Made by a program: the position numbers and the translations under genes. A DNA stretch of 33,723 nucleotides, taken from Promethearchaeota archaeon (GTDB lineage Archaea; Asgardarchaeota; Lokiarchaeia; Sigyniarchaeales; SOKP01). The first letter of the stretch is position 1. Each line of letters begins with the position of its first letter. The stretch covers positions 1-33,723 of the forward strand of contig JBHLPN010000006.1 of assembly GCA_048939445.1 (NCBI GenBank), given 5' to 3'. A model generated the notes under the pieces. It made no database searches, was not told the DNA's origin, and was given only the letters and a program-made list of their open reading frames with translations. Below are positions 17,786 through 25,753 of the stretch, in pieces.

Positions 17786-18991
17786 TTATCTTATCCTTAA
17801 AATACCCTTATAAATTAATACATAATTCTTTACACCTATAATCTTAGGATTTCTCCTATAACTTAAAGGGATAGGAGCATTACATCGAGAACAAAGACCA
17901 GAGGTTCTAAGCCAATCTTTAAATTCGTCTGCGTGAGCTGGATATCTGCAATTCGGACATAAAACTATTCCTCTGCCATTATCTCTAGGATATTCTGGTA
18001 ATTTGAAACAAAAAATACATTTAAAATCTTCTAACGACAAATTTGCAGCCTTTGGCCTATACAATTTTAAATTTATGCGCTTTACGGTGCTCTGACTCCT
18101 TCTAACTGGTTTAGTTGTTCTACTCGTGCGTGTAGTACGAGAAGTCGTTTTAACTCGAGAACTTTTGGATTGAACACGCCCAGTAGGCGTTGATCTTGAT
18201 GATTGAGAAATTGTTCTTGAAGTTCGAGTTTCTGTTCTAGTTGATGGTGTTGGAGATGATCTTGATCTAGTTGTAGTACGGGTACTTTGTCTCCTAGGAG
18301 TTGTATTTCTTGTTGGTGCTGTTAATTGGTTTAATCTCCTTGTACGTCTTGTTATGTAGTCTCTAGTTAATTGAGGTAATTGCGATCTAGTTCCAAATAA
18401 TCCAGGTACAATCAATATGAGTATAGTACTGATAAGTAATATCAAAAGATTAAGATCTATTAAAAAATGTAAAGGTATTAATAAAGTCCCATAGAAATCT
18501 ACAAGTGAATAAAAACTAATCCAATAAATAATTATGAAAAAAAGAATTGAGGTACTTAAAATATAACCAAAAATACGTGCTTTAACTGACTTTGTCCCAA
18601 AATAAATTACATTATATTTTTTAAAACAATAATATAAAGAAATTGAACCATATAATATATAGGGAAATCCGAATAGAAGACTCCACAAGCTTAAATATAA
18701 ACCTGTACCTTCCAGAAGATTTTCTCCTAATAAACCGGTAAAATTACCCCAAATTGAATAAAAAATTCCCATAAAAACAGGACCAATTGTAAAAAAAGCA
18801 GTATTGTGAGGAGAATTAAATTCACGATATTGTTTAATGTTTTTTATAACTTTAAAAGAAAATATCAACCAGATTCCAATTAATATCCAACTTACAAATA
18901 CATTGAAAGAATTTATAATAGCCCCATGGATTATACCAATTACCAAAAATATTGCCAATGTAATAACGACAGATTTAATTTTAGCCTTAAT
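17786..18991 (-). CDS. multi-pass membrane protein (~6 TM) with an S/T/R-rich linker and C-terminal RING-like zinc finger; putative E3 ligase (ORF-track start 18958, probable ATT start 18991)
   Basis: About six hydrophobic segments, then a low-complexity linker, then CxxC-x16-CxxC-x4-H-xx-E-xxx-W-x6-CxxC; last gene of the Ubl-E1-E2-JAMM run. Confidence 0.72.
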   Translation of the reverse strand: MKAKIKSVVITLAIFLVIGIIHGAIINSFNVFVSWILIGIWLIFSFKVIKNIKQYREFNSPHNTAFFTIGPVFMGIFYSIWGNFTGLLGENLLEGTGLYLSLWSLLFGFPYILYGSISLYYCFKKYNVIYFGTKSVKARIFGYILSTSILFFIIIYWISFYSLVDFYGTLLIPLHFLIDLNLLILLISTILILIVPGLFGTRSQLPQLTRDYITRRTRRLNQLTAPTRNTTPRRQSTRTTTRSRSSPTPSTRTETRTSRTISQSSRSTPTGRVQSKSSRVKTTSRTTRTSRTTKPVRRSQSTVKRINLKLYRPKAANLSLEDFKCIFCFKLPEYPRDNGRGIVLCPNCRYPAHADEFKDWLRTSGLCSRCNAPIPLSYRRNPKIIGVKNYVLIYKGILRIR

Positions 18992-19016
18992 TAAAACTCA
19001 CCCTGCTTCTTATGTT

Positions 19017-19829
19017 TTAATCTTCATCATATTCAAGGTATACTGCTTTCCCTTCTATTATAGGATTTATAAATTTTAAAATTTCCGGTAGCATTTGTAC
19101 ATCTAATGATCCTTTAATCCCATATACCAATGGATACCACGTTCTAGATTTAAAATCTGCCTTATATATTTCAAATCCAGTAGATTTACCATCAATTTGA
19201 TAAGGATCGATAACAAGGGCAACAGCTTTATCCCAAAGCTTTTGATATCTTGCTTGAGTTCCCATATCTTCATTAGACATAAAGCATCCATATGATGGGT
19301 GTGAATGATACCAACCACAAATGAATAATTTCTGTCTTTTGATATCTTTAAAGGCTTTCACATAATTTTTATAATCTTTGATTTCTGCATAAACTGCTGT
19401 GCCGTGCCCCATTGGATAAGAATCTTCAATATGTAGTATATTATTTTTATCTATTTTTCCTGCAAGAAGCCCTATGACCTCCACCCATCTTTCTCTTGGA
19501 ATCTTAGAATTAGCATATTTAAGTGCATGACTCGCTATTTTAAGAATCGCTTTTACTGAAATATAAATTTCTTTTTCTATTTCTTCTTCTTTGAAAATTT
19601 CCGCTTCTCTTTTTTCTACAATATTAGTTGTAGGTATCTTTGTAAGTTTTATAATTGGTTTAGCAGACGATTTTTTTGTAAGCATTGAAGAGATTTCTTC
19701 TGTTAATTCATCTTCTTCTAACTGAAGTTCTTCATATATTTCGTCTATTAATTCTTGCTTTATTTTTGCTTTTATCTTCCTTTTAATTACATCTTTAATT
19801 GAATTATTATTAACATCTTTATTTTCCAT
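19017..19829 (-). CDS. JAB1/MPN+ (JAMM) metalloisopeptidase, Rpn11/CSN5-like, with a charged N-terminal extension
   Basis: EVIGLL...GWYHSHPSYGCFMSNED.TQ..YQ...AVALVIDP is an intact JAMM motif. ATG 19829 follows a GGTGA that overlaps the E2 stop codon. Confidence 0.9.
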   Translation of the reverse strand: MENKDVNNNSIKDVIKRKIKAKIKQELIDEIYEELQLEEDELTEEISSMLTKKSSAKPIIKLTKIPTTNIVEKREAEIFKEEEIEKEIYISVKAILKIASHALKYANSKIPRERWVEVIGLLAGKIDKNNILHIEDSYPMGHGTAVYAEIKDYKNYVKAFKDIKRQKLFICGWYHSHPSYGCFMSNEDMGTQARYQKLWDKAVALVIDPYQIDGKSTGFEIYKADFKSRTWYPLVYGIKGSLDVQMLPEILKFINPIIEGKAVYLEYDED

Positions 19830-19836
19830 TAAGGAA

Positions 19837-20364
19837 TCACCATTTTTTATTTGCATATTTCTTAACAAGATTTTTAACTTTTTTCTCGAAAAATTTTGGA
19901 TTTTTCATCATTTCTATCGCTGCTTTTTTATTAAAAACATCAGTTGGATTTACATATTTACCACGTGTATTTAACATAGCAATTATTGCTTGAACAACAG
20001 TAACCGCTGTTTTTGAGGGACTCCATCCTCCTCGTTTACCGACTAATGAGGGATCTACTAATGCTAGACATATATTTCTCTGTCCCTTATATTCAGATGG
20101 TTTTGGCCAGAAATTTGGATGCCAAATTGGAGTATGCATTCTTACGAAAGGAGGTTGTTTGGGATATTGAGCAGGAAATCTCATTTCTAATCTAAAAAGA
20201 CCACCTGCATAAACAGTCCCTTTAGGTCCTTTAAAAGAGATTGCTAAATGATCAATACTTTTTCTTTTTGGATTAAATGGTTTTAATTGAACTATACTTC
20301 CCTCTTTAACCATCTTTTTTAATCCTGCAAAATCTCGGGAAATACGACTACTTCTTATACTCAT
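19837..20364 (-). CDS. ubiquitin-conjugating enzyme E2 (UBC fold)
   Basis: GPKGTVYAGGLF...FPAQYPKQPP...TPIWHPN...NIC (catalytic Cys)...WSP...NKKAA. Confidence 0.93.
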   Translation of the reverse strand: MSIRSSRISRDFAGLKKMVKEGSIVQLKPFNPKRKSIDHLAISFKGPKGTVYAGGLFRLEMRFPAQYPKQPPFVRMHTPIWHPNFWPKPSEYKGQRNICLALVDPSLVGKRGGWSPSKTAVTVVQAIIAMLNTRGKYVNPTDVFNKKAAIEMMKNPKFFEKKVKNLVKKYANKKW

Positions 20365-20444
20365 TTTCTCAACCCATTTTATTATCTTTAATTTTATATT
20401 GAAATTCTTTATTTAAATATTTGTTTTATTCTTATAATTTTTAT

Positions 20445-21704
20445 TTAAAACCTTTTCTGATTCAAATTTTGCTTTATTTTTAATGTTACAAAAATTTCTC
20501 CACCTTTAAACCCAGCAGCTGTCATAAGTTCGTAATTTCTTAAGTCATTTTCAATAGGATTCTTTTCTAAATCAACGATCTTTATATCATTGAAATCTTG
20601 TAAAGTGAGAATTGGCTCAGAATCTGGATCCATTTTATATCCATTTTTCTTTAGTATTTTAATTATATTCATGCAAGGTGATTGGGATCTCATTTTTATA
20701 GATACTCGTCGCACTTTTTTGCCGCATTGAGAACATTCTGAATTTCTATGCTTTTCAATATGATAAAATTTCATTGTAATTGCATTATAGATTACGTAAT
20801 TTCTTATAGGTTCGCCTAATCCTTTATGACCCTTTTTCCAATGAAGGATTTTTATTGTTTCATGTGATTGTAATGCTGAAATAACTGCGTTTATAGTAAT
20901 TATACCAGGATCGTGCCTATCAAGGATTTTAACAATATCATCTTCAGTATAATCAGGTAAGAAATTGTGTTTATATACTAGTTCATTAGCAATATCTTTG
21001 ATGAATTTAATATCATTAACGTTTTTTGGATTTGGATCTCTATTAAATTTTTCTTTAAATGCCATATCTCCTTTAAAAACGCAATGTATCCTTTTTCGAG
21101 GGATTCCTACCACTGTGCAAGCAGCCATCTCATCACTCTCTCCTACGGGTAACGGATTACATTCATAACAAGCATTTTTATAGGGAAATACTGTGTACAC
21201 ATGACCATGATAACCAGAAACTCCTCCGTCTACTAATGGTTTTTTAAATCTTATACACTGTGCGTTCAAGTTTAAACGTGCATTCATCGAATCAAGACCT
21301 CCAACAACAACATCAGCAGCTTGATATAATGCTGGATTCAATCGTTCTAAAGAAGTATAATATCCTTTAACAATAATATTTGGATTAATTTCCTTTAGTT
21401 TTCTGGCAGCAACAATCGCCTTTGGCTCTCCTATATTCGCTCCAGCAAAAAGAATTTGACGGTTCAAATTAGAATGTTCAATGATATCTAAATCAATAAG
21501 ATCTAAACGACCAACGCCAAGCATGGCTAAATTTTTAGCAATTTCGCAACCTAAACCTCCAACTCCAATTATTACTACTCTTGAGTTCTTTACTAATTTC
21601 TGAGACCAACCCTCCAAACGAAATTGACGGTCATACAAGTTTCTCTCTTCCACTGATAAATCTTTTGTAAAAAAATCTGAATCCTTATCCAATATTATCA
21701 CCAT
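20445..21704 (-). CDS. ubiquitin-like activating enzyme E1, Uba2/Uba3-type architecture
   Basis: YDRQ, GVGGLGCE, DLDIIEHSNLNRQ, CYEC, catalytic-Cys loop ACTVVGIPRKRIHC, PGIITINAVIS, CSQC, and an ~80-aa C-terminal extension (probable UFD). Alternative start TTG 21692. Confidence 0.92.
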   Translation of the reverse strand: MVIILDKDSDFFTKDLSVEERNLYDRQFRLEGWSQKLVKNSRVVIIGVGGLGCEIAKNLAMLGVGRLDLIDLDIIEHSNLNRQILFAGANIGEPKAIVAARKLKEINPNIIVKGYYTSLERLNPALYQAADVVVGGLDSMNARLNLNAQCIRFKKPLVDGGVSGYHGHVYTVFPYKNACYECNPLPVGESDEMAACTVVGIPRKRIHCVFKGDMAFKEKFNRDPNPKNVNDIKFIKDIANELVYKHNFLPDYTEDDIVKILDRHDPGIITINAVISALQSHETIKILHWKKGHKGLGEPIRNYVIYNAITMKFYHIEKHRNSECSQCGKKVRRVSIKMRSQSPCMNIIKILKKNGYKMDPDSEPILTLQDFNDIKIVDLEKNPIENDLRNYELMTAAGFKGGEIFVTLKIKQNLNQKRF

Positions 21705-21783: not shown

Positions 21784-22113
21784 CTACCCAGCAGTACTCG
21801 CAGGGATTAATAGAATATCGTCGCCATCTCTTATATCATAATCTCTCAAAGTACTGTTTTCATCCATCGTAACCCCTCCAGAAGAAATATGAAAATCATT
21901 AGGATCAAGTCCATATAGATTTCCTAATGTTTCTTTAATATCTCTTACATGATTGCTGTCATTTACAGTTAATTTTTCTTTCTTTTCACCAGGACCAATT
22001 GTTGACATGAAATATAAAGTCAATTTCTTTCCTGCTGAAGGAGTTTTACCTGCGGGAGTTTTAGATTTTAATGGTTCTCCACCTAATTCTTCATCAAATT
22101 CATCAAAACTCAT
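21784..22113 (-). CDS. ubiquitin-like modifier 1 (beta-grasp), C-terminus -TAG (single terminal Gly)
   Basis: VRDIKETL...GVTMDENSTLRDYDIRDGDDILLIP resembles ubiquitin (TLSDYNI); directly upstream of E1; GGAAGTGA precedes the ATG. Confidence 0.88.
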   Translation of the reverse strand: MSFDEFDEELGGEPLKSKTPAGKTPSAGKKLTLYFMSTIGPGEKKEKLTVNDSNHVRDIKETLGNLYGLDPNDFHISSGGVTMDENSTLRDYDIRDGDDILLIPASTAG

Positions 22114-22388
22114 TCACATCACTTCCTTTTTTTTTTTTTATTTTATTACTTTTAGATTTATTGGACCTATTAAAATGGCATTAAAAATGTATTATAAAAC
22201 CCTTTGGAATGATTTTGAAGTTTTTTATGTTCTCATCAAAAACAAAAAAGAGAAAATTTGGAATGTAAAGAAATTATATTATAAATTGTATGAATGCCTA
22301 TAAATATATATAAGATACTAAAAGTTGTTTTAGAGAGATTACATAATTATAGAAACTAAATTTTTCAACGTAATATAAGTATGGGCTC

Positions 22389-23060
22389 ATGAGTTCTCCG
22401 GATAATGCAGAATCTGTCGTTTTTAAATTAGTAGAAGAGTATTTAACAAAAAAAACTTTTTTCTCAATTAGAGAAATTATATCTTATATAAATAACAGGG
22501 TGAGATACAAACCTAGTATAAACGAGAATAGAATAGAGTTGATTTTAAAGGATTTAATTAAAAGCCGTGTGATTATTCCTGGAACTAGATTAATGAAAAA
22601 CAATATTGTTGAACATCCAAAAAGGAATGAGATTTATAATTATATTAAAAAGACTCCTTCAAATATCAATGAAATAATGAGAGCGCTTAACATTGGTAGT
22701 AATCAAGTTTTATGGCATTTATCATGTTTAGAAAAATTCCAGTTCATTAGATCAAAACAAATTAACAATCATAAAATTTTCTTCAAATTTGATTCTGATC
22801 CAAAATTTGACTCGTTATACTATTATTTAAAAAAAGAAATCGTTCAAAAAATAATTAATTTTATGGAAAAAGAAAATAAGGGATTTAAGATTACAGAAAT
22901 AACAACTGCTTTAAAAAAAAATCACAGCACTATTAAAAAATATTTAGATATTCTAAAAAATATGGAATTAATAAAAATTGAGAAAGAAAAAAATAGAAAG
23001 ATATTCAAATTAGATTTAGAAAAATATACTAGGGCTAGAAAATCAATTCAAGGTGTATGA
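22389..23060 (+). CDS. multi winged-helix transcriptional regulator
   Basis: RNEIYNYIKK..SNINEIMRALNIGSNQVLWHLSCLEK and ITEITTALKKNHSTIKKYLDILK wHTH patterns; divergent from the Ubl operon. Confidence 0.75.
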   Translation: MSSPDNAESVVFKLVEEYLTKKTFFSIREIISYINNRVRYKPSINENRIELILKDLIKSRVIIPGTRLMKNNIVEHPKRNEIYNYIKKTPSNINEIMRALNIGSNQVLWHLSCLEKFQFIRSKQINNHKIFFKFDSDPKFDSLYYYLKKEIVQKIINFMEKENKGFKITEITTALKKNHSTIKKYLDILKNMELIKIEKEKNRKIFKLDLEKYTRARKSIQGV

Positions 23061-23145
23061 AATGAAAAACTCCAATTTTATTCCAATCCCATTTAAATTT
23101 TAATATATATATTTTAAATTCAGAAAATAATCTAATCAAAAAATC

Positions 23146-23940
23146 ATGAGAAAAAATTCTAGAATTTTGAGTGTTATCACTCTTTACGTTATCTGTATTT
23201 TGTGTTATATGTTTTATTTCCTATTTCATATAGAAAATACTCCTCTATTTCTTGTTCTAACTATTGGGAGTGTTGCTGTTTTATCCACTAGTACAATTTA
23301 TACAGTTATACAGTCTAAAAGTAGTCTAGATAAGAAAATACAAAAAAAAAAATACATAACAAAACCAAAATCAATTCAAAAAGACACTATTAATATCCTT
23401 GAAGATTATATTGATGCTATGCCTTCAATAGAAGAATATATTGAGTCAGATGAATCCTATAAGGATATGCCAATAATTGATAAATATATTTTTTCAATAT
23501 TTAGCAAGGAAGAATTAGCTAAAATTGATCTCTTAGAATTACCAAAAATGGATAAGATATTATTTATCAGAGAAATGCTATATTACGATCCAAATGAAAG
23601 AAAGGATTTAATTGAAAATATGTTGAAAAACAAGGATAATATTAATGGTGAGATAATATATTCATCCCCTATAAGCTCAATTAAAATGGAAGACCAGATT
23701 CGAGTTTATGTAAGATCATTAGTTGAGCCTGGTGAGAAAACGAAAATAATCATTGTTGATACAACTGAATTAATTAGGATAATTAAGGAAAAAATAGCAA
23801 TATTATTTGATTATGAGTTAGAAGATTTTCTCTTATCTAGCGGAGGAATATTGTTAAAAGAGCATTCACTAATAGGAGAATATGATATCGATGATGATGA
23901 TGAAATTGCTTTAATCCCCTCAAGAAAAGAAAGAAAATAA
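23146..23940 (+). CDS. membrane-anchored protein (2 N-terminal TM) with a C-terminal ubiquitin-like domain paralogous to the free Ubls
   Basis: Two hydrophobic segments. The last ~80 aa align without gaps to Ubl1 (PGEK, IKE, DF, SSGG, YDI, LIP; 29/74 identical by hand count). Ends SRKERK with no Gly. Confidence 0.8.
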   Translation: MRKNSRILSVITLYVICILCYMFYFLFHIENTPLFLVLTIGSVAVLSTSTIYTVIQSKSSLDKKIQKKKYITKPKSIQKDTINILEDYIDAMPSIEEYIESDESYKDMPIIDKYIFSIFSKEELAKIDLLELPKMDKILFIREMLYYDPNERKDLIENMLKNKDNINGEIIYSSPISSIKMEDQIRVYVRSLVEPGEKTKIIIVDTTELIRIIKEKIAILFDYELEDFLLSSGGILLKEHSLIGEYDIDDDDEIALIPSRKERK

Positions 23941-23958: not shown

Positions 23959-24387
23959 TTAACCAGCTATACTTGCTGGAATTAGAAGTATGTCATCCCC
24001 ATCAGAAACATTAAAATCTCTTAATATACTATTTTCATCCATTGTTACACCACCAGACGATAAGTAAAAATCAGCAGGATCCAAACCAAACAAATTTGCT
24101 ACAGTTTCTTTAATCTCACCAACTAGATTGCCATCATTAATGGTTAATTTTTGTTTTTTCTCACCTGGGCCAATAGTAGACATGAAATATACTGAAATCT
24201 TTTTCCCTCCATGAATGATCTTTTTAGAAGGTGTTTTGGATTCAACTTCCTTCTTTTCTATCTCTGTAAAAGGTTCTTCGATATCTTCTTCCATGTCTTC
24301 TTCTATTTCTTCATCTAGATCTTCTAAATCTTCATCAAATTCTTGCTCATCAAATTCTTGCTCATCAAATTCATCATCAAAGCCCAT
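23959..24387 (-). CDS. ubiquitin-like modifier 2 with a long acidic N-terminal tail, C-terminus -IAG
   Basis: 61/82 identical to Ubl1 over the core by hand count; residues 1-50 are Asp/Glu-rich. Confidence 0.88.
   Translation of the reverse strand: MGFDDEFDEQEFDEQEFDEDLEDLDEEIEEDMEEDIEEPFTEIEKKEVESKTPSKKIIHGGKKISVYFMSTIGPGEKKQKLTINDGNLVGEIKETVANLFGLDPADFYLSSGGVTMDENSILRDFNVSDGDDILLIPASIAG
24332..24372. repeat. 15-bp coding tandem repeat (EFDEQ units) in the Ubl2 tail
   Basis: TCATCAAATTCTTGC twice plus a partial third copy. Confidence 0.75.
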
Positions 24388-24571
24388 AAAATAGACCCCA
24401 AAATATTAAATATTTTTATTTTAAATATAATTCTGATATTTTTTTTCTAAGATTATATGAAAATAATAGAAACTAAGCTATATAAATAGAATTAACAAAA
24501 AGATAAAGTTAATTATTTTAGTCAATATTCATATGAATTTATTAATGGAGGAAGTTAATGATTGAAACATT

Positions 24572-25753
24572 ATGAATGACAAACCTATTCCCAAATATCA
24601 AATTCGAGAAAAGACACCAGATGAAGAACTTGATACATTTCCAGATAAAAAATTACTGAAGAAAATAAAAAAAGAAAGAATCAAGTTAGATAAAGAAAAA
24701 AATGAATGGGAAAAAACGATCAATCAAATTGAAAAATACAAAGAAAATGTTGAAGATCTCGAAAAGAAAAGAAAAGAAAAAGAACTTAAAATTAAATTTC
24801 TTCTTGAACAACGAGATAACTTAAAAAATGAGTTAGATAGAACTAAAAATCAAATAGAACAACAAAAGCAAGATTTAGCAGCTAAAGATCGTCAATTTAG
24901 AGAAAAAATCAGGAGTAAGAATGAAGAATTAGATCAAAAAAATGCTGAATTACATAGATTTCAAGAAAAATTAGATAATTTAAGAGAGGATATTGCAAAT
25001 CAAAAGAAGAATTTAGAATGGGAAAAAGAAAGAACAGAAAAACGAATAAAGGAAATTAAAACGAAGATTCCGGGTATGGAAAGAAGAGAAAATGCTTTAG
25101 AAAGAACTATTAATGAATTAGAAAAAAAGTTAATGGATTTAAGAAATGAAATTAAAGATTTAACTAAAGAAAGAGATAACTTAAATAGGGAAATTAATAA
25201 TCTAAGGAGAGAGATTATTGATGAGAAAAATCGAATTTCTGATGAAAAGCAAAAACTTAAAGAAGAAAGAGAAAAAATTCGTTATAAAAAACAAGATGTA
25301 AATCTAAAGTCTCGTGAACTTGATAAAAAAAGAGCAGATCTAAAAAAGTATAAAGATAAACTAGCAAATGATGTAAATAATTTAGAAAAAAGAAGACGAC
25401 AACAGGAAATGAGATTAAAAGACTTAGAAAGAAAAGTTCCTGCTACAGAAAATAAATATAATTCCTTAAGTCGTAAAATTCCAAATTTAGAAGAAAAATT
25501 TAAAAAAATAAATAATGAATTTAGACAATTAGAAAAAGAAAAAACAAACTTAGATAGAGAAAAAAATCTTATTAAGCGTGAAAGAGAAAAATTAGAAAAG
25601 GATAAACAAAGATTTATAAAGGAAAAAAGAGAATTTGAAAGAGAACTAAGAAAGATTAAAACTAAAACTCCCTCAATTGAAACAAAGACTCCTTCGCAAA
25701 TTAAAACAAAAACTCCTTCGCAAATTAAAACAAAAACTCCTTCAAAATATTAA
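24572..25753 (+). CDS. long coiled-coil protein with an internal ~120-aa repeat and a C-terminal KTPS repeat tail
   Basis: About 330 aa of E/K/R/L-rich heptads with very few Pro/Gly; no P-loop or globular domain visible. Confidence 0.8.
   Translation: MNDKPIPKYQIREKTPDEELDTFPDKKLLKKIKKERIKLDKEKNEWEKTINQIEKYKENVEDLEKKRKEKELKIKFLLEQRDNLKNELDRTKNQIEQQKQDLAAKDRQFREKIRSKNEELDQKNAELHRFQEKLDNLREDIANQKKNLEWEKERTEKRIKEIKTKIPGMERRENALERTINELEKKLMDLRNEIKDLTKERDNLNREINNLRREIIDEKNRISDEKQKLKEEREKIRYKKQDVNLKSRELDKKRADLKKYKDKLANDVNNLEKRRRQQEMRLKDLERKVPATENKYNSLSRKIPNLEEKFKKINNEFRQLEKEKTNLDREKNLIKREREKLEKDKQRFIKEKREFERELRKIKTKTPSIETKTPSQIKTKTPSQIKTKTPSKY
25655..25744 (+). repeat. 21-24 bp coding tandem repeat encoding (Q)I[KE]TKTPS x4
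   Basis: CAAATTAAAACAAAAACTCCTTC[G/A] at 25697-25720 and 25721-25744, with two more diverged copies upstream. Confidence 0.85.

Follow-up and report, generated by a model that had tools for sequence, protein, structure and literature searches.

A predicted membrane-tethered ubiquitin-like protein without a conjugation end, encoded beside a putative winged-helix regulator in a Lokiarchaeial ubiquitin-like gene cluster

Introduction

Genes for a modifier, E1, E2, a JAB/Rpn11-like protein and a RING-type protein are described as lying together in the ubiquitin operon of Candidatus Caldiarchaeum subterraneum and in clusters of Asgard archaea (PMC5654768, PMC6043591). The Asgard clusters attract study because eukaryotic ubiquitin signalling is traced back to them, and so far they have been viewed as soluble tag-and-enzyme sets. 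The present analysis concerns a cluster of this kind in a 33,723-nucleotide stretch of a Promethearchaeota archaeon of the class Lokiarchaeia (assembly GCA_048939445.1, contig JBHLPN010000006.1, positions 1 to 33,723 of the forward strand), hereafter called the window, and in particular the protein encoded at 23146..23940 (+), which carries two predicted transmembrane (TM) helices at its N-terminus and a ubiquitin-like (Ubl) domain at its C-terminus and is referred to here as TM-Ubl. The gene context of the window is the same as in the described clusters, and the fold of the TM-Ubl domain is closest to that of Caldiarchaeum ubiquitin; the free modifiers of this cluster, Ubl1 and Ubl2, differ in ending with Ala-Gly instead of Gly-Gly. 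On sequence comparison, TM-Ubl is best explained as a hybrid composed of an extra TM helix, the TM/linker/tail module of large receptor-like surface proteins, and a diverged copy of the modifier domain in which a charged tail replaces Ala-Gly. There is about an even chance that this protein holds or controls the neighbouring winged helix-turn-helix (wHTH) regulator at the membrane, its dead-end Ubl domain serving as the link to the ubiquitin-like system.

With respect to domain composition, the closest analogies to TM-Ubl are probably provided by eukaryotic membrane proteins that carry a ubiquitin-like fold, namely TMUB1/2, Herp/Usa1 and MUB/UBL3. Herp and Usa1 (with Hrd1) are integral-membrane UBL cofactors of RING ligases of the endoplasmic-reticulum (ER) membrane. 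MUB/UBL3 of eukaryotes is described as a membrane-fixed ubiquitin fold that regulates the ubiquitin cascade rather than tagging. It is held by a lipid anchor (prenylation) through a C-terminal Cys motif. TMUB1/2 are described as membrane UBL proteins that act with a membrane RING ligase (RNF185) and in which TM segments near both termini flank the UBL (PMC7482433). TM-Ubl resembles TMUB, Herp and Usa1 in having a non-conjugatable ubiquitin fold that is predicted to be held at the cytoplasmic face by TM helices and is encoded with a membrane ligase system. It differs in that both TM helices are N-terminal and the Ubl domain lies at the very C-terminus, in lacking homology to these proteins outside the fold (PF00240 is the only Pfam or NCBIfam match), in being archaeal and restricted to four genera, and in carrying a receptor-tail domain that is genetically coupled to a wHTH partner. 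With MUB/UBL3 it shares the membrane-fixed ubiquitin fold, whereas it is anchored by a TM hairpin, has no Cys in its last 200 residues and ends with SRKERK.

In proposed logic, the closest analogies would be SdpI/SdpR and the pairs formed by anti-sigma and sigma factors. Extracytoplasmic-function (ECF) sigma factors with their membrane anti-sigma factors, as well as RsgI/SigI, occur as many paralogous pairs, in which the gene of the DNA-binding partner adjoins that of a single-pass protein exposed at the surface and bearing a small cytoplasmic domain. Lokiarchaeial genomes likewise contain paralogous pairs of a surface protein and an adjacent partner gene; however, the partner is a winged-helix protein rather than a sigma factor, the system is archaeal and without homology to the bacterial ones, and TM-Ubl itself lacks an ectodomain but has a Ubl domain. 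In Bacillus subtilis, according to the published account, the membrane protein SdpI sequesters an ArsR-family autorepressor encoded just upstream (SdpR), such that capture at the inner face of the membrane sets the availability of the regulator (PMC2910880). The locus studied here has the same arrangement of a regulator gene followed by a membrane-protein gene on one strand (85 bp apart, in 12/12 loci), the regulator is an ArsR/SdpR-like winged helix (with model matches below cut-off), and the analogy extends to the logic of capture at the membrane, which in the archaeal case is a proposal. Unlike SdpI/SdpR, the wHTH protein has two to three winged-helix units, the proposed docking element is a soluble five-helix tail instead of membrane loops, and TM-Ubl bears a ubiquitin fold and has no sequence relation to SdpI (no Pfam or NCBIfam match). 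Judged by its sequence, TM-Ubl belongs to none of the SdpI/SdpR, TMUB/Herp/Usa1, MUB/UBL3 or anti-sigma systems, because it has no homology to them beyond the ubiquitin fold, a different domain order and no Cys lipid-anchor motif. The portions of the literature covered by full-text search, passages of Asgard papers among them, describe neither a membrane-tethered archaeal Ubl nor the tail domain.

A membrane protein with a dead-end ubiquitin fold

The TM-Ubl gene is an open reading frame (ORF) of 264 codons plus stop, and its translation contains two hydrophobic segments (Kyte-Doolittle hydropathy, 19-residue windows) at residues ~7-27 and 33-55. TM1 (residues ~7-27; 23164..23226, +), which corresponds to helix 3-26 of an AlphaFold2 model, is preceded by the N-terminus MRKNSR with three Lys/Arg residues. 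It is joined by the loop HIENT (residues 28-32; 23227..23241, +), which loop lengths and charge in 43 sequences place on the outside, to TM2 (residues ~33-55; 23242..23310, +; LTIGSVAVLSTSTIYTV), a segment homologous to the single TM helix of the surface proteins discussed below. A Lys-rich linker follows (residues 56-83; 23311..23394, +), with residues 56-85 containing 9 Lys/Arg vs 2 Asp/Glu. The next element is a domain of five helices (residues 84-161; 23395..23628, +), a member of an undescribed family that is common to the C-termini of proteins of 390-1912 aa and is here termed the receptor-tail domain. An inter-domain linker without regular secondary structure (residues 162-183; 23629..23694, +) leads to the ubiquitin-fold, or beta-grasp, domain (residues 184-258; 23695..23919, +), and the protein ends with the Gly-free tail SRKERK (23920..23937, +).

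The AlphaFold2 model was built from an alignment of 43 relatives and has a mean pLDDT (predicted local distance difference test) of 75. It consists of a helical hairpin (3-26 and 32-66), a disordered stretch at residues 61-81 (pLDDT <50), tail-domain helices at 84-100, 109-116, 121-129, 134-144 and 149-161 (block pLDDT 82-87), the inter-domain linker (block pLDDT 60-70) and a beta-grasp domain with strands at 184-191, 199-205, 228-232 and 252-258 and a helix at 210-221 (pLDDT 86-88). Residues 189-256 match Pfam PF00240 with 28.1 bits against a cut-off of 25.4, and Foldseek places the model closest to Caldiarchaeum ubiquitin, 6fno_D (target TM-score 0.80, root-mean-square deviation 1.3, 78 columns). 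Hydropathy, charge count and the model thus bear out each of the parts that an earlier note, made from the letters of the window, had listed: two TM helices, a basic linker, a small helical domain and then the Ubl domain. The public record of the protein (P0004) has 243 aa and starts at Met22, which would remove most of TM1; since residues 1-21 are conserved across relatives (M1, K3, R6, L13 and Y21 in >=90% of the 43), position 23146 is the better start.

Among the 43 sequences, Lys/Arg residues number 3.5 on average in the N-terminus, the loop between the TM helices has 2-5 residues with at most 1 Lys/Arg in 43/43, and the 30 residues following TM2 hold a mean of 8.8 Lys/Arg, with a minimum of 6. 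By the positive-inside rule, this distribution places both termini, and hence the Ubl domain, in the cytoplasm in 43/43 sequences. The possibility raised earlier that the Ubl domain might lie outside the membrane, which would have spoken against a role in the pathway, is therefore not favoured by prediction. An integral-membrane protein with a predicted cytoplasm-facing Ubl domain is the description that the evidence supports.

The Ubl domain is clearly related to the free modifiers of the cluster. BLASTP aligns residues 184-259 with Ubl1 at 38% identity (29/76, E 3e-17) and with Ubl2 at 39% (30/76, E 1e-17), while Ubl1 and Ubl2 share 66% identity; the hand count of ~39% identity to Ubl1 given earlier is thereby closely reproduced, as is the RKERK end. 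The C-terminus reads ...LIPSRKERK in TM-Ubl, ...LIPASTAG in Ubl1 and ...LIPASIAG in Ubl2. A comparison set of 67 Ubl domains, assembled from loci and searches, comprises 17 members of the TM-Ubl family and 50 others. Terminal Ala-Gly is present in 0/17 of the former vs 49/50 of the latter, in which ...S/T-x-A-G stands at the end or a few residues before it (P0188 being the exception). In all 43 aligned relatives the family ends with LIPSRK.., LIPLRK.. or LIPKR.., and the family tail R-K-x-K aligns with the same columns as S-T-A-G of the modifiers. TM-Ubl thus lacks the C-terminal Gly (...S-x-A-G) by which a conjugatable modifier would be adenylated by E1. The best explanation of these sequences is that TM-Ubl cannot be activated or conjugated, in agreement with the original description of a membrane-tethered, non-conjugatable protein.

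The remainder of the domain is retained to a large extent. Seventeen columns have the same conserved residue in both groups (S191, P195-K198, K214, F228, L230, S231, G234, E239, Y246, D252, I254 and L256-P258), including the PGEK loop and the F.LS.GG and I.LIP motifs. Seven columns are conserved yet different (family/modifiers: L192/T, E194/G, I202/L, Y223/L, L229/H, D251/G and R260/S). The recognition face of the domain therefore appears to be largely kept; the columns that we take to represent the Leu8/Ile44/Val70 face of ubiquitin were assigned by secondary-structure register and general knowledge rather than by a computed superposition.

A tree of the 67 domains unites the 17 family members in a single clade, with support of 100/97 and a stem of 0.63 substitutions per site; Ubl1 and Ubl2 are mutual nearest relatives apart from it. 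The closest neighbours of the clade are two proteins that combine a zinc ribbon, a coiled coil and a Ubl domain (L015_3622-4407 and P0188), at a point where long branches meet; the tree is rooted at the midpoint only, and the program warns of long branches near the TM-Ubl clade. The proposal of the earlier note that a local duplication created the protein does not hold for a recent copy of Ubl1. TM-Ubl is instead an old, fixed paralogue, as indicated by its own long-stemmed clade and by the full 264-aa architecture, which is fixed across four genera.

A word-indexed search yields 428 homologues at E<=1e-3, and the best 120 of these are 64-100% identical to TM-Ubl and almost all 264 aa long; those with names, among the homologues listed, are hypothetical or 'ubiquitin-like' proteins from metagenome-assembled genomes of Promethearchaeota/Lokiarchaeota type. 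Within the class, 95/161 genomes have a match at E<=1e-20, distributed over genera g1 (49/53), g4 (36/42), g7 (3/6) and g6 (6/10). The match is confined to the Ubl part in two g6 genomes (G040 and G080) and to query residues 32-171, within a 585-aa ORF, in one g4 genome (G148). No TM-Ubl was found in the other 26 genera of the 161-genome search or in 26 genomes of six other families. Its range is accordingly confined to one Lokiarchaeial family, in which it occurs in four genera, and nearly every genome that has the protein has a single copy. Across 43 sequences, 21 columns are invariant, located within TM2 (S42, Y52 and T53), the tail and the Ubl domain among others, so that the Ubl domain proves to be conserved in orthologues, an outcome on which the earlier note had made its case depend.

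A cytoplasmic tail shared with surface proteins and coupled to winged-helix genes

The helical domain between linker and ubiquitin fold occurs well beyond TM-Ubl. An exhaustive search of representatives clustered at 50% identity finds 71 that match TM-Ubl at E<=1e-3, about eight of them over the full length, and many others align solely to residues ~75-165 or from TM2 on. Alignments beginning within TM2 cover query residues 31-196 with P0165, 34-169 with P0148 and 32-163 with P0194, and an alignment from TM2 through the tail is also obtained with P0173. The tail match lies almost always at the C-terminus of a protein of 390-1912 aa that has one TM helix and an ectodomain of beta-helix repeats, a WD40/PQQ-type propeller (L017) or repeated immunoglobulin-like modules. 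The TM helix of these proteins carries the same IGS...S...Y pattern as TM2 and is followed by a basic linker and then by the tail, and TM-Ubl has the complete module, that is, the patterned helix, the basic linker and a tail of ~85 aa. Profile matches to the tail reach 1.9e-33 in other genomes, and the domain is sometimes present in tandem (P0146, P0148 and P0193). On these alignments, the helical domain of TM-Ubl is the predicted cytoplasmic tail module of large receptor-like surface proteins of Lokiarchaeia and not a private spacer. Surface proteins with this tail include P0146, P0153, P0157, P0165, P0166, P0183, P0185 and P0189, together with L017:2147-3991(-) and L018:3187-6858(-). A Cys/His-rich finger (CxxH...CPxC...YCxxC...CWxC) often precedes the tail in the receptors.

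No Pfam or NCBIfam model matches the tail domain, finger-bearing tails (P0156 and P0158) have no Pfam match, and the ESM Atlas provided no usable match. The C-terminal domain of REV1 was the best profile match among PDB chains and was set aside, its E value of 0.17 being not significant.

The gene directly upstream of TM-Ubl (22389..23060, +) encodes a 223-aa wHTH protein of ArsR/SdpR-like type, which matches Pfam HTH_5 at 2.7e-10 and the ArsR/SmtB and SdpR models of NCBIfam below their cut-offs. It adjoins TM-Ubl on the same strand, with the 85-bp gap, in 12/12 loci, namely the window and 11 orthologous loci from two genera, and the order Ubl1(-), wHTH(+), TM-Ubl(+), Ubl2(-), coiled-coil gene(+) is kept in all 12.

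Tail and wHTH genes are also neighbours where TM-Ubl is not involved. Five genomes were searched with the wHTH protein and with a tail-domain profile. For 23/33 tail-bearing ORFs, a wHTH-family match lies no more than 7 kb away and shares contig and strand with the ORF, against a chance expectation of <10% by rough arithmetic (25 genes x 14 kb in 4 Mb), and many of the pairs are just 7-100 bp apart. Two orders are observed: the wHTH gene, sometimes with a small half-wHTH ORF, precedes the receptor gene, or the receptor gene is followed 7-100 bp downstream by the wHTH gene. Viewed from the other side, 20 of the 28 full-length wHTH matches have a tail neighbour, 3 are fused to membrane segments and 5 have neither. 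The three fused paralogues (L019:771-1904(+), L020:577-1707(-) and L021:400-1542(+)) have the wHTH part behind a module of TM helix, ~90-aa ectodomain and TM helix, are without the tail, and look like one-component membrane-bound winged-helix proteins. Fusions of this kind without a tail are expected if the job of the tail is to bring a wHTH protein to the membrane, and they indicate that the wHTH family does work there, which lends indirect support to the proposed capture of the regulator. No ORF of the five genomes combines tail and wHTH matches, and no longer fused wHTH form (392-2000 aa) scored in a protein-database search whose range excluded fusions of ~320-390 aa.

In the source genome, which is 88% complete, a hidden Markov model search finds the tail domain clearly in TM-Ubl only, and there is a single full-length wHTH protein of this family; TM-Ubl and the wHTH protein are consequently the only obvious partners of each other there. 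Two weak relatives of the tail were recorded in this genome (G000), at C220 18182-18748(+) with E 6e-5 and at C359 10405-10611(-) with E 7e-5; the former contains masked bases and lies ~270 bp upstream of a weak wHTH-family match (C220:19018-19581). Elsewhere, genomes G019 and G046 contain a single tail receptor alongside TM-Ubl. The observation in the earlier note that TM-Ubl follows a wHTH regulator is thus extended to all 12 loci, while its interpretation as merely a sign of separate regulation gives way to that of a conserved partner, given the genetic coupling of the tail to wHTH paralogues and the presence of the wHTH gene at each of these loci.

Proposed role and alternative explanations

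In the interpretation considered here, docking to the tail domain would hold the wHTH regulator at the membrane, as in SdpI/SdpR or anti-sigma/sigma pairs, a proposal that derives from the encoding of the tail module beside wHTH paralogues across genomes. The Ubl domain would stand in for the ectodomain of the receptors, serving as input or output; a second helix alone would replace the usual ectodomain, with the ubiquitin fold added inside. Components that recognise the modifier fold (E1, E2, JAMM or an unfoldase) would bind the Ubl domain and be unable to consume it, such binding would change the amount of regulator held, and the cluster would thereby gain feedback on its own genes. We infer both the binding of the tail to the wHTH protein and the existence of a partner for the Ubl domain.

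Several points weigh against this interpretation. Ten of the 33 tail-bearing ORFs have no wHTH match nearby, including short stand-alone ORFs and ORFs at contig ends. Adjacency could also reflect the joint duplication of regulator and receptor genes; the wHTH protein would then act on the transcription of its neighbour and never touch the tail. DNA binding by the wHTH protein, for its part, can only be inferred, since the ArsR/SdpR models match below their curated cut-offs. In addition, an AlphaFold2 model of the tail by itself (pLDDT 72) has no Foldseek match at E<=0.001, and VIA-align comparison of the tail with 48,161 chains gives a best Z of 5.3, to generic three-helix bundles, which is within noise for helical models.

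A conserved, membrane-fixed, dead-end ubiquitin fold would show that the use of a ubiquitin-like domain as a docking module, a eukaryotic hallmark, already existed in archaea; lying inside the cluster, it would also show that the system is connected with the membrane and with control of its own genes. The shared tail is a sign of a large, undescribed family in which surface receptors form pairs with winged-helix proteins, and these pairs could be a main route of environmental sensing in these archaea. A more ambitious version of the docking proposal, to which only a small chance is given, envisages kinase-free, ubiquitin-linked transmembrane signalling, in which surface receptors and TM-Ubl alike hold winged-helix regulators by the common tail, and the regulator is set free or destroyed by E1/E2/JAMM of the cluster or a Cdc48/PAN-type unfoldase, recruited by the Ubl domain or, in receptors, by the Cys/His finger. 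In yeast, Spt23 and Mga2 are membrane-tethered transcription factors that are mobilised in a ubiquitin-dependent manner. The archaeal system, if this version were true, would be a forerunner of such mobilisation as well as of the UBL cofactors at eukaryotic membrane ligases.

A role as an adaptor in the style of ER-associated degradation, in line with the Herp/Usa1-like adaptor suggested in the earlier note, is rather unlikely but deserves consideration. The tethered Ubl domain would then recruit a Cdc48-/PAN-type unfoldase, the proteasome, JAMM, E1 or E2, or would assist the membrane Cys-rich ligase as a cofactor, and the part left to the wHTH protein would be that of its transcriptional regulator only. 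Such a role would suit a membrane-tethered, predicted cytoplasmic Ubl domain that retains much of the conserved surface of the modifiers and shares its gene cluster with E1, E2, JAB and a multi-TM Cys-rich protein, and eukaryotic UBL-bearing membrane proteins are recurrent partners of membrane RING ligases (PMC7482433). However, the enzyme operon and the membrane Cys-rich protein are present without TM-Ubl in related genera (loci L015 and L016), so that the ligase is independent of TM-Ubl; similarity to Herp, Usa1 or TMUB does not extend beyond the ubiquitin fold, and the domain order differs. An adaptor also leaves unexplained why the receptor-tail module co-occurs with wHTH paralogues where no Ubl domain exists. 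The adaptor role and the tethering of the regulator do not exclude each other.

It is less probable still that the tail is a homotypic or a cytoskeletal/sorting module, the wHTH protein a local transcription factor only, and TM-Ubl a device that gives clustered receptor tails a ubiquitin-like tag in trans. Dozens of surface proteins carry the tail, sometimes in tandem and often beside a Cys/His-rich, zinc-finger-like motif, as such a module might. Yet the source genome has no other clear tail protein, only the two weak matches (6e-5 and 7e-5), which leaves the tail of TM-Ubl with nothing to pair with there, and genus g2, which is rich in tail receptors, has TM-Ubl in 0/4 genomes.

A decoy or buffer is very improbable. 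The uncleavable, unactivatable Ubl domain would in that case vie with free Ubl1 and Ubl2 for binding to E1, JAMM or receptors and thereby dampen the pathway at the membrane, and the tail and wHTH protein would have no part in it. Such competition would fit the retention of the fold and the main conserved loops, as well as a C-terminus that ends at the alignment columns of the mature modifiers yet is rich in Arg/Lys and devoid of Gly. A single-copy membrane protein is, however, ill suited to compete stoichiometrically with soluble modifiers, the strong conservation of TM2 and tail would be left unexplained, and the seven differing columns together with the long stem of the clade (0.63) suggest changed rather than mimicked specificity. 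That TM-Ubl is a decaying or non-functional modifier duplicate behind a hydrophobic leader, as the loss of the conjugation end alone might suggest, is effectively refuted by full-length constraint (64-100% identity in the best 120 of 428 homologues), by occurrence in 49/53 and 36/42 genomes of two genera and by the 21 invariant columns.

Gene cluster and control regions

The enzyme genes occupy 17786..21704 on the minus strand. Pfam matches identify E1 (ThiF; 20445-21704, -), E2 (UQ_con; 19837-20364, -) and a JAB/MPN protein (19017-19868, -). The gene at 17786-18958 (-) encodes a multi-TM protein whose linker is rich in Ser/Thr/Arg and whose C-terminus is Cys-rich. This protein is taken as a RING-type ligase and has no Pfam match at E<=0.1; its Cys-rich C-terminus and the Cys/His finger of the receptors show no relation by BLASTP (E 0.71). 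Ubl1, a free modifier ending with STAG (21784..22113, -), is the first gene of the enzyme operon. Ubl2 (23959..24387, -), a free modifier with an acidic N-terminal extension that ends with SIAG, is convergent with TM-Ubl, with 18 bp between the stop codons, an arrangement found in 12/12 loci. It is followed by the coiled-coil gene (24572-25753, +). TM-Ubl is transcribed separately from the enzyme operon, as it lies on the opposite strand.

Between Ubl1 (-) and the wHTH gene (+) lies a divergent control region (22114..22388), in which the 12-locus alignment reveals two long conserved blocks. These blocks, of ~50 bp each and located in 22160-22340, are almost invariant across the 12 loci, far beyond expectation for a spacer, and may represent promoters and operators; one of them contains TTTGGAATGATTTTGAAG. 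The 85-bp gap between the wHTH gene and TM-Ubl (23061..23145, +) is strongly conserved in the same alignment and contains an AT-rich, TATA-like stretch and ATTCCAAT, so that TM-Ubl may have its own promoter.

Three short motifs in these regions serve as leads only for candidate operators. TTTGGAATGA occurs exactly at 22203, and with up to two mismatches it has 93 matches in the window vs 94.7 expected, which is the chance level. The heptamer TTGGAAT/ATTCCAA is common to both control regions, and with mismatches permitted its frequency in the window is that expected by chance. ATAGAAACTAA is found exactly twice, upstream of the wHTH gene (22349-22359) and between Ubl2 and the coiled-coil gene (24466-24476); with one mismatch it has 7 matches vs 3.3 expected, a number reached in 2/100 shuffles. 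The copy upstream of the wHTH gene is exact in the window only, and that at 24466 is exact in 3/11 other orthologous loci.

Ubl domains occur in several further arrangements. The clusters of genera without TM-Ubl contain proteins with a zinc ribbon (YxCPxCxxxH...), a coiled coil and a Ubl domain that end with Ala-Gly and are conjugatable (L015:3619-4401(-), L016:6703-7470(+) and L016:7765-8658(+)), and the same form is seen in P0164, P0174, P0184 and P0188, the last being the exception without Ala-Gly. Other N-terminal domains precede the Ubl domain in P0151, P0154, P0161 and the 564-aa P0181. P0136 and P0149 are head-to-tail poly-Ubl proteins of three and two units, respectively, each unit ending with STAG or SQAG, in the manner of polyubiquitin precursors.

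The ORFs of the source genome together contain 41 copies of the motif [ST]KTP, and six of these fall in the three adjacent genes of Ubl1 (1), Ubl2 (1) and the C-terminus of the coiled-coil protein (4), which is the only ORF of the genome with at least two; TM-Ubl is without the motif. By eye, many Ubl proteins of other genomes that have an N-terminal extension carry [ST]KTP ahead of the Ubl domain.

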